Shown here piece after piece: positions 1 to 2,937 of a stretch of 3,583 bases of DNA (position 1 is the stretch's first letter; every line of letters starts with the position of its first letter). The notes under the pieces are model-generated. The model did no database searches and was not told the DNA's origin. It saw only the letters and a program-made list of their open reading frames with translations. A program made the translations under genes and the position numbers. This DNA comes from a virus. Taxonomy: Duplodnaviria; Heunggongvirae; Uroviricota; Caudoviricetes. The stretch covers positions 1 to 3,583 of IMG/VR virus record IMGVR_UViG_2648501787_000015; one strand, given 5' to 3'.

Positions 1-786
1 CTGACATTAAGTGCGGGAAAGAAATATTCATCTTCGCCATCCCACATCAGGATTAATGGCTATTCATTTACAACCCCGTATCCTGATGAAGCAGCCAGTT
101 ATTACTATGAAATTTTCGCAACGCGAAACGAAAACGGCTATGTCTCAGCCAGTCTGTACTGCAACCGCTCATTAGCTGGAAATGCATCGTTTTATGTATC
201 AGATGACCGGACTGACAAAATTCAGGTGAGTATTGGTAGTGGTGACAATATTTTTTCATCGGGTGCATCCGGCACGTTAATGCTGGGTGATATGTACTGT
301 GGAACAGTGACATACGGTAGAAATAATAGTGCAGAACCCGCCCTGCTCGGAAGCATTGAGGTCAGATACAGCCCGGTAACGGCATTTACCGGTGGAAGCG
401 CCAAAAACTCACTGAATAAAGATATTGTCACGGGGCTGAACACCTCTGACAGCGAGGCCGGATATCTGATGCTCTCGCCGTCCCTGAATGCAGCACAGGC
501 CACGTTTGATGCGGTGGATAACAGCAACAGTGATGTTGTGGCTGTTATGGCCTCGGTCACTTACCGCGGTGCTGATGCCCCCAATAACTGCCTGGCCTGG
601 AAAGTGAAAAATGGCAGCCATGCAGGTGCAACGATTACAGAGAATGGCGTACAAAGCGACACAAACAGCTGGACGACTGTCTCACAGAGTTTTATGACCC
701 AACCAGGAGGGAGCACTCCCTTCGCTAAGGGTGAGCTGACTTTTACAGCGGAGTTGTTTAATCAGGCAAGGAGCGCCACTGAATAA
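1..786 (+). CDS. 3' portion of a gene whose start lies upstream of the window; S/T/G/N-rich protein, putative phage structural (receptor-binding or tail-fibre-associated) protein, family not recognised
   Basis: Frame 1 has no stop codon from base 1 to TAA at 784-786; the ORF track shows only the part after an internal GTG at 226. Composition is typical of beta-rich fibre or adhesin domains, and the gene sits immediately upstream of a tail-fibre gene. No specific family motif recognised by eye. Confidence 0.4.
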   Translation: MTLSAGKKYSSSPSHIRINGYSFTTPYPDEAASYYYEIFATRNENGYVSASLYCNRSLAGNASFYVSDDRTDKIQVSIGSGDNIFSSGASGTLMLGDMYCGTVTYGRNNSAEPALLGSIEVRYSPVTAFTGGSAKNSLNKDIVTGLNTSDSEAGYLMLSPSLNAAQATFDAVDNSNSDVVAVMASVTYRGADAPNNCLAWKVKNGSHAGATITENGVQSDTNSWTTVSQSFMTQPGGSTPFAKGELTFTAELFNQARSATE

Positions 787-828
787 TAAATATCTCTGTA
801 TACACAATATCAGGAGAAATAATCAGAT

Positions 829-1608
829 ATGTTTCACATTGATAATAATACTGGCGTGCCGGTCATGCCGCCCGTCGCGGCTGAATACAGTAAAACGACG
901 CTTTATTTCACCGAAGGAGGGAACGGTATTCCACCCACGTATCCGGGGCCGGACTGGTTTAATATCGTGCAGTCCGAAATGCTGGAAATTCTCCGGCAGG
1001 CAAATATCAAACCGGACAAAAACACGACCAACCAGATTATGACGGCGCTGAAAAAGCTGTTTATCACTAACAGTGGTTCAGCCGGGGCTATTGCCGGATT
1101 AACCGGTCAGAATAATACGTTCCCGTATTTTACGGGCGAAGACACAATGTCATTAACGCCACTCAGTGCGTTTGTGCGCGGTATTCTTGGTAAAACCACG
1201 GCCGGTGAATTTATAGATGCGCTTTCGTTACGTGACACGGTAGATAAAGCCAGTCGTGCCGTACCGAATACCCGCAGGGTCAACAACATGCCCCTGACTT
1301 CGGATATCACCATCAACAACATCAGCGGCAACGCCGGAACGGCAACCCGGCTTCAGACGGCCCGCAGGATTAACAATGTGCTGTTTGATGGCAGTGGCGA
1401 TATCACGATTCCTGCAGGAATGAGTCAGTCAACAGCTGATGCCCGGTACATTCAGAATGTTCAGTTGGGGGCTCAGGTTCAGGGCGGATATCAGGCTCCG
1501 ACAGGCTGCGTGGTCACCTTTGTTGATGGCGGCGAAAAAATGGAGTTCATCAAGTATAAACCAGTGCAAATTTATATTAATGGCGCATGGCGCACTATCT
1601 CTGGTTAA
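829..1608 (+). CDS. Tail fibre protein, distal (C-terminal, receptor-binding/variable) half of a P2 H / Mu S / lambda Stf-type fibre, encoded as a separate 259-aa ORF
   Basis: ATG at 829 preceded by AGGAG at 812-816 (long 12-nt spacer). The protein contains AGLTGQNNTFPYFTGEDTMSLTPLSAFVRGILGK, which matches the conserved PYF(T/A)G..SL..L..GR.ILAK block of lambdoid/P2-type side tail fibres as I recall them. The C-terminus ARYIQNVQLG...IYINGAWRTI resembles the C-terminal chaperone-interaction end of P2 H-type fibres (RY..V.LG ... YINGxW). It is followed directly by a tfa-family gene. Confidence 0.65.
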   Translation: MFHIDNNTGVPVMPPVAAEYSKTTLYFTEGGNGIPPTYPGPDWFNIVQSEMLEILRQANIKPDKNTTNQIMTALKKLFITNSGSAGAIAGLTGQNNTFPYFTGEDTMSLTPLSAFVRGILGKTTAGEFIDALSLRDTVDKASRAVPNTRRVNNMPLTSDITINNISGNAGTATRLQTARRINNVLFDGSGDITIPAGMSQSTADARYIQNVQLGAQVQGGYQAPTGCVVTFVDGGEKMEFIKYKPVQIYINGAWRTISG

Positions 1609-1622
1609 TTAAGGAGAAAATA

Positions 1623-2153
1623 ATGGAACTCAGAAATGTTACACGTTACCACCCTGAAGATATGCCTTATGGTGAAGGCATTCAGTATTTCCGCAGTGAA
1701 GACGGACAGGATTTTTATGAATCCATGGACAAATTCACGAAGAGATACAAATTGTGCATTCACCCTGAAAGCGGCGTGATTTATTCAATGGCGGAAGACG
1801 TGTCCCGTCTTTATCCGACAGGTTTCACCATTGTGGAAGTTGATGAACTGCCGGAAGGTTTTGGCATTGAAGCCAGTTGGTATTACAAAGACGGCGAAGT
1901 GCTGCCGGTTCCTGTTGATTATTCGCAACTGGCAGAAAAACAACGCCAGCATCTGCTGACTGAAGCAAAGGACGTCACCTCCGACTGGAAAACCGAGCTG
2001 GAGCTGGGCGTCATCAGTGATGACGACAAAGCTCGTCTTGCGCAGTGGATGGCGTATATCAAAGCGGTAAAAGCGCTGGATTTAAGCGCCGTTACTGATG
2101 AAGCCTCCCTTAATGCCATCAGCTGGCCGGAGCATCCCGATGCCGCAGCTTAA
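1623..2153 (+). CDS. tfa: Tail fibre assembly protein (chaperone), Tfa / Mu U / P2 G family
   Basis: Strong RBS AAGGAG at 1611-1616 with a 6-nt spacer before ATG 1623; the ORF-track start at 1587 has no RBS and lies inside the upstream gene. The C-terminal region W..ELELGVISDDDKARLAQWMAYIKAVKALDLS....ISWPEHP matches the conserved Tfa C-terminal signature (LGIIS, W..Y..V...D.S, WPE.P) recalled for Mu U, P2 G and lambda Tfa. Position immediately 3' of a tail-fibre gene is canonical. Confidence 0.8.
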   Translation: MELRNVTRYHPEDMPYGEGIQYFRSEDGQDFYESMDKFTKRYKLCIHPESGVIYSMAEDVSRLYPTGFTIVEVDELPEGFGIEASWYYKDGEVLPVPVDYSQLAEKQRQHLLTEAKDVTSDWKTELELGVISDDDKARLAQWMAYIKAVKALDLSAVTDEASLNAISWPEHPDAAA

Positions 2154-2610
2154 AGGTGTGATTAAAACGCCCACAGGAGAACCGCTGGGCAGCACAACCA
2201 TCACGCTGACCTCCCTGCACAACCGTGCAGGGATTCTGAAAGGTGTTTTCAGCCACGTCACTACACAGAGCGGGGAGTACGACTTCCCCGTCATGCCGGG
2301 CGTGTACAGCGTTCGCCTGACACAGAGTACACAACGCCTTTCAGAAATCGGTGTCATTCGTGTTTATGAAGATTCACAGGACGGTTCGCTTAACGATTTT
2401 TTGTCGGTGACAGAGGCAGATTTGCGCCCTGAATCTCTTAAAAAGTTCGAAGAGATTGCAATGCAGATACAAAAAAGTGCGGAAAGTGTCAGATTATATG
2501 CAGAGGAGGTGAAACGGGATTGCGCAATTACCCTCGAAAACAGAAAACAGACAGAGAGACTGCTGTCCCTGATAGCAGAGCCTCTTTCTCAGAGTGCCGC
2601 AGAAAGCTGA
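2140..2610 (+). CDS. Side-tail-fibre N-terminal (virion anchor) domain protein, 156 aa; either a stand-alone anchor module or a truncated stf remnant
   Basis: ATG at 2140 with GGAG at 2129-2132 (7-nt spacer); the start overlaps the tfa stop (2151-2153) by 14 nt. MPQLKGVIKTPTGEPLGSTTITL...GEYDFPVMPGVYSVRL...IGVIRVYEDSQDGSLNDFLSVTEADLRPESLKK parallels the lambda Stf N-terminus as I recall it (MAVKISGVLKDGTGKPV...ITVYEDSQPGTLNDFLCAMTEDDARPEVLRR). The ORF ends at TGA 2608-2610 without any fibre shaft or distal domain. Confidence 0.6.
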   Translation: MPQLKGVIKTPTGEPLGSTTITLTSLHNRAGILKGVFSHVTTQSGEYDFPVMPGVYSVRLTQSTQRLSEIGVIRVYEDSQDGSLNDFLSVTEADLRPESLKKFEEIAMQIQKSAESVRLYAEEVKRDCAITLENRKQTERLLSLIAEPLSQSAAES

Positions 2611-2751: not shown

Positions 2752-2937
2752 ATGGACTCTGTTCGCTGTAAAAACTGCAATAAGTTACTGTTTAAAGGAG
2801 GTTTTAAGCATATAGAAATTAAATGCCCTCGCTGTAAACGTTACATTGTCATATCGAATGCCAAAGAGCATCCCACGGAGCTGTATTGTGGGAAAAGAGA
2901 AGAAATCACGCATTCTGACAAAACCCTGCGTTATTGA
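2752..2937 (+). CDS. com: Com, zinc-finger translational activator of mom (Mu Com homologue), 61 aa
   Basis: RBS AGGGGG at 2742-2747 before ATG 2752. The protein [61 protein letters not shown] is nearly collinear with phage Mu Com as I recall it ([62 protein letters not shown]), including the CxxC...CxxC zinc knuckle. Its 3' end overlaps the next gene in another frame, as in Mu. Confidence 0.9.
2872..2892 (+). promoter_or_regulatory. Translation-inhibition hairpin (TIS-like): CCCAC / GTGGG stem sequestering the GTG start of mom, with the GGAG Shine-Dalgarno in the loop
   Basis: CCCAC at 2872-2876 is the reverse complement of GTGGG at 2888-2892; t2871 and a2893 can add a sixth pair. The loop is GGAGCTGTATT (2877-2887). 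GTG at 2888 is in the mom frame. This is analogous to the Mu mom TIS hairpin opened by Com. Confidence 0.45.

Follow-up and report, generated by a model that had tools for sequence, protein, structure and literature searches.

The 259-aa fibre gene at the right end of a Mu-like Escherichia coli prophage is probably a whole compact Mu S-type fibre with an internal exchange junction

The window (the whole stretch of DNA that was analysed, 3,583 nt) contains a gene for a 259-aa tail fibre protein, and the locus raises the question of whether this gene encodes only the variable distal half of a fibre or a fibre that is complete in itself. A sequence-only reading had favoured a distal half whose start coincides with the junction between the constant and variable parts of the fibre. 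We find that the gene very probably encodes a whole compact fibre and not a detached distal half, because homologies reveal an anchor, a short shaft and a tip within the same polypeptide.

By homology, the window corresponds to the right-hand terminus of a Mu-like E. coli prophage, in which the fibre gene is followed by a tail fibre assembly gene (tfa), a truncated second fibre gene, com and mom (Table 1). Of 5,426 complete E. coli genomes, 22 carry the whole window at about 98% identity. Its final 820 bases share 88-89% identity with com-mom of Mu, SfMu and D108, and both Com and Mom of the window are recognised by Pfam. One of these is NZ_AP041814.1 (E. coli O166:H15 JNE21-009), where the window forms the right end of a Mu-like prophage at 1.508-1.524 Mb (locus L002). 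The annotation of this locus gives sheath, tube, tape measure, a DNA circularization protein (homologue of Mu gp43/N) and gp44-47, continues with a gp48/YmfQ protein of 324 aa, a hypothetical protein of 352 aa, a 'phage tail protein' and a tail fibre assembly protein, and, after a 'prophage tail fiber N-terminal' pseudogene that is truncated, ends with com and mom. The start of the window falls within the 352-aa gene.

Table 1. Features of the window, with the related loci at which the repeat module was located (positions in nt of the window unless a locus is named).
Feature	Position	Strand	Basis or remark
3' 261 codons of independent 352-aa gene, phrog_8291	1..786	+	not a fibre part
Stops, spacer and AGGAG	784..828	+	read from sequence
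Compact Mu S (gp49)-type tail fibre gene, very probably complete, 259 aa	829..1608	+	homology and PHROGs
N-terminal anchor domain, aa 1-81, homologous to Mu S 1-81	829..1071	+	phmmer, BLASTP
Block common to P1 S constant part (Sc), aa 87-127	1087..1209	+	BLASTP vs P1 S 409-449
F128-D136 'FIDALSLRD', main module-exchange junction of the family, not a functional crossover here	1210..1236	+	collinear with Mu gixL and P1 cixR
Shaft repeat 'DITINNISGNAGTATRLQTARRINNVLFDGSGDITI', single copy, aa 159-194	1303..1410	+	matches P1 S repeats
C-terminal tip, aa 195-259, homologous to Mu S and S' tips	1411..1605	+	BLASTP, AF2/Foldseek
Tail fibre assembly protein, Mu U/U' homologue, 176 aa	1623..2153	+	PF02413, E 1.5e-21
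156-aa ORF, PF08400 N-terminal domain, second lambdoid-type fibre, truncated	2140..2610	+	PF08400, E 1e-25
com, translational activator of mom	2752..2937	+	PF10122; 89% DNA identity to Mu, SfMu, D108
mom, DNA modification, marks the right end of the Mu-like genome	2858..3583	+	PF25680, E 1.5e-75
Repeat module on gp48	L002, L004, L018		three diverged Mu-like lineages
Repeat module on PF08400 fibre N-terminal domain	L011; uncalled ORF in Raoultella L013
Repeat module on P2 H-like N-terminal domain	E. albertii L015, 7119-7976
Repeat module on rearranged ORF	L016		LT-II toxin prophage

We examined the boundaries of the fibre gene. As the sequence-only reading had stated, the 259-aa ORF has a start codon of its own, an ATG. 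The upstream ORF ends with TAA at 784-786, which is followed directly by a second TAA (787-789) and, further on, by a third in-frame TAA (820-822); the three stops described earlier are thus all present, and the spacer measures 42 nt (787-828) instead of the 43 given before. The ribosome binding site had also been read correctly as weakly spaced, since the AGGAG at 812-816 lies 12 nt before the ATG, which is unusually long and suboptimal. In and around the spacer we found no promoter-like or terminator-like site, Rfam family or tandem repeat, and we therefore presume that the fibre gene is transcribed together with the genes next to it. The 13-mer CAGGAGAAATAAT (811-823) recurs unchanged in the RBS region of the fibre gene at L004, where the ATG comes 7 nt earlier, and one might speculate that the long spacing in the window is the scar of a junction. 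At four related loci (L003, L008, L010 and L011), a 194-aa gp48 is followed by the fibre gene within 3 nt, as in Mu. In the lineage of the window, gp48 (L002 10730-11704) carries a 125-aa C-terminal extension (aa ~200-324) and is parted from the fibre gene by the 352-aa gene, which belongs to phrog_8291; the relatives in which the fibre gene abuts gp48 are homologous to the window from nt 828 on. Hence, the separately spaced RBS and the 42-nt spacer of the fibre gene can be attributed to the accessory phrog_8291 gene that separates it from gp48.

The two ORFs, 1-786 and 829-1608, are both in frame 1, as they would be if a sequencing error or a recent mutation had interrupted a single gene. We give this possibility practically no weight, as three in-frame stops lie between the ORFs, the arrangement as two genes is 98-100% conserved and is annotated in this way in the 22 complete genomes, and each of the two protein families has its own conserved termini. 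Furthermore, a fused homologue is absent among 1.84 billion representatives, and the gene orders differ between loci. With in-frame stops, independent families and no fused homologue, the fibre gene is separate from the upstream ORF, as had been proposed. The upstream ORF belongs to a stand-alone family, unrelated to the fibre and located elsewhere in other phages, which also argues against the fibre gene being the distal continuation of a split fibre.

The 259-aa protein belongs to a well-populated and already annotated family of Mu-type fibres. It has 226 homologues, mostly of 253-331 aa, with E-values down to 1e-153, the best of which is 91% identical over 259 aa. The start MF(H/Y)(V/I)DN is common to 20 of the 21 full-length homologues that were aligned, and the PHROGs profile phrog_1833, 'tail fiber protein', is matched from profile position 1 (E 1e-82). 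Together with the PF02413 match of the downstream gene, this bears out the earlier assignment of a tail fibre gene with a Tfa partner. The protein has no match in Pfam or NCBIfam, and a collection of 5.8 billion clusters contains no match above 91% identity to its exact pairing of constant part with distal cassette.

The N-terminal part of the protein is decisive for the question of completeness. Residues 1-125 align with Mu S 1-125, Met1 to Met1, at 38% identity (BLASTP, E 8e-25), and aa 1-81 match residues 1-81 of the Tail fiber protein S in the structures 5yvq_A and 9ki1 and of the S/S' chimera 8ju3_A (phmmer, E 2e-24). The alignments with Mu S and P1 S that the earlier reading had called for thus place the onset of homology at residue 1 of Mu S, not at the exchange junction. 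In cryo-EM structures of Mu, the N-terminus of gp49 anchors the trimeric fibre on a docking loop (residues 133-155) of the wedge protein gp48 (PMC11915804). When the gp48 of the prophage was aligned with Mu gp48, the loop motif (V/L)DxV(L/M)TPL was found to be conserved, and an insertion was found near the docking-loop region, so the docking geometry may differ from that in Mu. A protein that is only the variable distal half of a fibre and joins a proximal part encoded elsewhere, or an orphaned Sv alternative of an invertible segment, would agree with the gene's own start codon and the 42-nt spacer after three stops, as well as with the homology of aa 87-136 to the Sc/Sv junction of P1 S. However, such a protein would not be expected to begin with the Mu S anchor, aligned from residue 1, and the relatives that share the N-terminal 128 aa sit directly after gp48. 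We therefore regard a distal half as very improbable, and read the gene as that of a whole fibre.

Following the anchor, the middle of the protein resembles P1 S. Residues 87-200 match P1 S 409-522 (BLASTP, E 4e-21) in an alignment of 185 columns that spans cixR and the shaft repeat. The FPYFTG sequence (aa 98-103, nt 1120-1137, with PYFTG at nt 1123-1137) lies within the aa 87-127 block, where the block FPYFTGEDTMSL occupies aa 98-109 and is aligned with P1 S residues ~420-431. The protein had been thought to begin just upstream of this PYFTG block, but the block starts 97 codons into the gene, after the homologue of the Mu S N-terminus. Nor does the PYFTG..SL block itself mark the boundary between the constant and variable parts, as had been supposed, since the equivalent of the crossover lies about 30 residues further, at F128-D136. 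The shaft repeat, present once in the window, varies among the homologues from 0 to 2 copies.

We presume that the tip, aa 195-259, is the receptor-binding and Tfa-binding domain. Residues 200-259 match Mu S 437-502 (BLASTP, E 2e-8), and the match of the tip to Mu S' 251-322 is weaker (E 2e-5). An AF2 monomer model was confident for the tip alone (pLDDT ~80), with a pLDDT of 44.5 overall and below 50 for aa 1-196. For a fibre that is presumably trimeric, a monomer model is expected to be uninformative beyond the tip, and with such a poor model of residues 1-196 the anchor and the shaft receive no structural support from it. A Foldseek search with the modelled tip gave 5yvq_A and 8ju3 as the sole credible matches (probability 1.00 and 0.99), and the support for homology of the tip is moderate, because these matches are short (66-75 columns).

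We then looked at where the homology between fibres breaks off. The position of the break coincides with known crossover sites: Mu gixL (L001 3955-3980) encodes F166-E174 of Mu S, 'FIQNLGLQE', which is collinear with F128-D136 of the window protein, and the P1 cixR crossover, at aa 454 of P1 S, is aligned with aa 132. Among the 120 homologues listed, a group of 331 aa is 86-93% identical to the window protein up to aa 129-143, mostly up to aa 134, and beyond ~aa 134 this group is weakly related or unrelated to it; the same break appears in an alignment of 21 representatives. In one homologue (P0087), a Mu S'-like variable part is attached at this position. In DNA alignments, L008, L003 and L010 are homologous to the window from nt 828 to nt 1212-1214 and no further. 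Judged from these alignments, an exchange junction does exist, but it is internal (aa 128-150, nt 1210-1278) and lies 3' of a retained constant part of 128 aa.

The sequence downstream of this junction is also found behind another fibre N-terminus. From nt 1278 to nt 2086, that is over the distal 110 aa and tfa, the window is 97.9% identical to the fibre-tfa pair of L004, whose fibre (P0113) has an N-terminus unlike that of the window fibre and sits on a different Mu-like tail module. At the protein level, the distal 115 aa of P0113 are identical to those of the window fibre. In addition, the difference between the window and its closest genome is confined to nt ~1410-1700, which corresponds to the tip and the first 25 tfa codons, and points to a third breakpoint at ~aa 194 ('GDITI'). 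By these comparisons, the C-terminal part of the fibre is an exchangeable host-range cassette. That a mobile cassette common to another fibre begins at nt 1278 could also be expected of an independent distal half. The earlier idea of a variable host-range cassette encoded as a separate polypeptide therefore stands as far as the exchangeable C-terminal part is concerned, and does not stand with regard to the separate polypeptide, in which the anchor is present.

Since the junction is collinear with gix and cix, we searched for the elements of an inversion system, as had been suggested for gix/cix-like sites and an invertase gene. The Mu gix sequence was checked against Mu, where it occurs exactly twice, at the annotated boundaries of the G segment, which served as a positive control. 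A 26-bp gix scan of the window gave a best match of 16/26, compared to a shuffled mean of 15.6, and the collinear position (1211-1236) matches gix at 13 of 26 bases. Neither the 26-bp scan nor one for gix half-sites rose above shuffled controls in the window or in eight related loci. The region is not flanked by inverted repeats, the window having only short chance pairs. With Mu Gin as the tblastn query, the best match in the window had an E-value of 1.8, and the annotations of L002, L008 and L010 include no invertase. A second S'/U' set is likewise absent from the window: Mu S' and U' match only the plus-strand fibre and tfa genes (tblastn), and no minus-strand ORF exceeds 112 aa. The absence of a gix site, of Gin and of an inverted S'/U' set further argues against an orphaned variable alternative; the earlier suggestion of a former invertible-segment alternative that lost its constant part also fails on the retained 128-aa constant part.

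In place of an invertible segment, relatives with the same constant part have two tandem fibre sets and no invertase, in the order S-tfa, then a fibre of the PF08400 type (471 or 1,035 aa) together with a DUF4376 protein, then com-mom. The fibre gene shows clearly that this prophage lineage varies its host range through cassette replacement and tandem fibre sets, not through inversion of the G type. In the window, the first set is continued by a Tfa (1623-2153) that is 26% identical to Mu U over its full length (E 4e-22) and matches Mu U' (E 5e-27) and the chaperone chain 5yvq_B of the Mu fibre-chaperone complex (E 1.6e-16). A deletion of ~1.6 kb has shortened the second fibre to 156 aa, with window positions 2484/2626 corresponding to L008 8908/10551. 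The remaining ORF shares 63% identity with the N-terminal ~145 aa of the L008 fibre of 471 aa, and it is carried as an annotated pseudogene in L002.

With a truncated second fibre next to it, the 259-aa gene could itself be an intact-looking but decayed fibre, an internal-deletion derivative in a cryptic prophage that would adsorb through the phrog_8291 protein. Its length of half that of Mu S with a single shaft repeat, and its long RBS spacing, would be in line with such decay. On the other hand, dozens of 90%-identity clusters at 253-269 aa have intact ORFs, conserved tips and matched Tfa genes, and the late operon of L002 is complete and Mu-like. Moreover, the tip and the Tfa N-terminus have recently been exchanged between near-identical prophages, which implies selection on function. 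Decay thus appears unlikely to us, and a functional compact fibre accounts better for these observations.

For such a whole fibre, the homologies suggest the following mode of action. The Mu S-type anchor (aa 1-81) would dock a fibre trimer on the fibre-docking loop of gp48, and aa 87-127 form a P1 Sc-like linker. The stretch aa 128-136, collinear with gix/cix, is a recombination-prone junction, and aa 159-194 supply one repeat of the shaft. The Mu S-like tip (aa 195-259), its folding aided by the downstream U-type Tfa, would bind the receptor, which is probably LPS. Host range in this lineage shifts by horizontal swaps of the segments after aa ~128, ~150 or ~194, and not by site-specific inversion.

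We also examined the phrog_8291 gene that separates gp48 from the fibre gene. The product is a predicted lectin-like jelly roll. The upstream ORF had no tblastn match among 50,697 phage records, a sequence search of the PDB gave nothing significant, and a scan of genome contigs for phrog_8291 yielded one locus. Each of the seven phrog_8291 loci that we examined also encodes a protein whose C-terminal part is a repeat module of the pattern 'PLxINRxQLQ(S/T)G...', ending 'GL(H/S)FA(V/F)', and at six of these loci the gene bearing this adaptor is immediately upstream of phrog_8291. Neither Pfam nor NCBIfam has a model for the module, and a profile search with it gave 7 matches. We had considered the gp48 extension per se as the docking partner of phrog_8291; this was revised, as gp48 is short at L011, L013 and L015, and the module is found there on other anchors (Table 1). 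The simplest reading, drawn from gene neighbourhood, is that a portable adaptor mounts phrog_8291 on different tails. Whether the baseplate has two receptor-binding devices, namely a short S-type fibre and an undescribed two-component device in which a repeat module grafted onto an anchor recruits the lectin-like phrog_8291 protein, we judge to be an even question. If it has, the notion of a distal receptor-binding part made as a separate polypeptide would fit the upstream gene, not the 259-aa gene. Such a pairing, if confirmed, would offer a simple plug-in way of fitting varied tail types with a receptor-binding protein, which would be of interest for host-range engineering, and the pairing of phrog_8291 with the adaptor is accordingly a more useful lead than the 259-aa gene.

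One of the closest known systems is Mu S (gp49), the partner of U (gp50; PDB 5YVQ, 9KI1, 8JU3). The window fibre shares with it the N-terminal 81 residues, collinear from residue 1, and a homologous C-terminal tip of ~60 aa, and, as in Mu, a U-type Tfa is encoded directly downstream and the locus belongs to a Mu-like late operon that ends with com-mom. Unlike Mu S, which has 504 aa, the 259-aa window fibre lacks most of the shaft, and its middle resembles P1 Sc more than Mu. The G segment, gix, gin and S'/U' of Mu have no counterpart in the window, and the fibre gene is split from gp48 by an extra gene, contrary to the case of Mu. With P1 S, the window protein shares the FPYFTG block and the 'GNAxTATKLxTARxINGVxFDGSGDI' repeat within aa 87-200, but P1 S has 987 aa and a different N-terminus; its junction is a working Cin site, whereas the window keeps only the protein-level motif F-I-x-x-L-x-L-R-(D/E). 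The gene thus illustrates textbook fibre mosaicism, with breakpoints where Mu and P1 have their inversion sites.

Another close system is PHROG 1833, annotated by PGAP as 'phage tail protein', which comprises short S-type fibres from Mu-like prophages of E. coli, Shigella and Salmonella. The window fibre is a full-length member of this family, and the best homologue has the same start, the same constant N-terminal 128 aa and a variable remainder. Split or adaptor-mounted receptor-binding proteins are exemplified by gp36/gp37 of T4. The protein of the 259-aa gene, which carries its own anchor, does not follow this concept, but by analogy the concept may apply to the pair formed by the C-terminal repeat module of gp48 and phrog_8291.

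We looked at seven loci with phrog_8291, the family of the protein encoded at the start of the window, and found that a C-terminal repeat module, 'PLxINRxQLQ...GLHFAV', accompanies it in every one. The anchors fused to this module vary, being the baseplate wedge protein gp48, the fibre N-terminal domain PF08400 or an N-terminus that resembles that of P2 H, and the gene for the resulting adaptor mostly lies immediately 5′ of the phrog_8291 gene. Pfam and NCBIfam hold no model for phrog_8291 and none for the repeat module, and a ConA-like jelly roll is predicted for the uncharacterised phrog_8291 protein. The pairing of phrog_8291 with the module on differing anchors suggests a portable adaptor and a receptor-binding protein that are encoded apart.

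Coordinates of the features in the window and in the compared loci
Locus	Feature	Coordinates
Window	phrog_8291	1-786
Window	region 5′ of the fibre ATG, with the 13-mer	811-828
Window	replaced fibre tip and tfa start	~1410-1700
Window	156-aa ORF, N-terminal domain (PF08400) of a second tail fibre, lambdoid type; overlaps the tfa end	2140-2610
Window	position at which ~1.6 kb is absent relative to relatives	2484-2626
Window	palindrome	2649-2680
L002	phrog_8291/adaptor	10730-12786
L004	phrog_8291/adaptor	4998-5954; 7319-8419
L004	fibre gene ribosome-binding region	5990-6003
L011	phrog_8291/adaptor	5391-7113
L013 (Raoultella)	phrog_8291/adaptor	5039-7149
L015 (E. albertii)	phrog_8291/adaptor	7119-9059
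L016	phrog_8291/adaptor	4001-5803
L016	toxin prophage with the pair	367-1512; 4001-5803
L017	third Mu-like lineage, extended gp48	3861-4978
L018	third Mu-like lineage, extended gp48	3860-4978
L018	phrog_8291/adaptor	3860-6065

In the L016 prophage, one such pair adjoins lysis genes and heat-labile enterotoxin type II genes (Enterotoxin_a and LT-IIB domains), distant from any baseplate genes. The N-terminus of this adaptor ORF is unrelated and DNA-binding-like, suggesting that the ORF is a rearranged remnant. The third Mu-like lineage (L017 and L018) repeats the order extended gp48, phrog_8291, 263-aa fibre and tfa, with the phrog_8291 stop and the fibre ATG overlapping (TGATG); in L017, compared with L018, two ORFs make up the extended gp48, probably because of a frameshift.

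Ahead of the window's own fibre gene, the 13-mer CAGGAGAAATAAT exactly matches the ribosome-binding region of the fibre gene in L004, a different Mu-like tail module, where the ATG lies 7 nt earlier relative to this shared sequence. In the window, the SD stands an unusual 12 nt from the ATG, and this distance may be a scar left by recombination. Within the fibre, the ~32-aa shaft repeat 'DITISNISGNAGTATRLQTARRINNVPFDGTS' differs in copy number between otherwise near-identical homologues of alignment A2 (none in P0074, one in the window, two in P0007, P0008 and P0052), and thus fibre length changes by repeat slippage. Compared to the closest complete genome, which is otherwise 98-100% identical, a single stretch is replaced (40-87% identity), made up of the tip of the fibre (aa ~195-259) and some 25 codons at the start of tfa. 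The replacement is a micro-cassette swap of very recent date that couples the tip with the chaperone N-terminus.

Downstream, the window has only the 156-aa ORF where the related prophages L008 and L010 carry a complete second fibre (471 or 1,035 aa) and a DUF4376 protein, and ~1.6 kb is absent relative to these relatives. GATC is strongly under-represented across the whole window (3 sites against 13.7 ± 3.4 expected), and two of the three sites are placed symmetrically within a 13-bp-stem palindrome, which is followed by a T-run and lies ~70 nt 5′ of com. The mom operator of Mu is Dam/OxyR-controlled, and the GATC-bearing palindrome recalls this operator.
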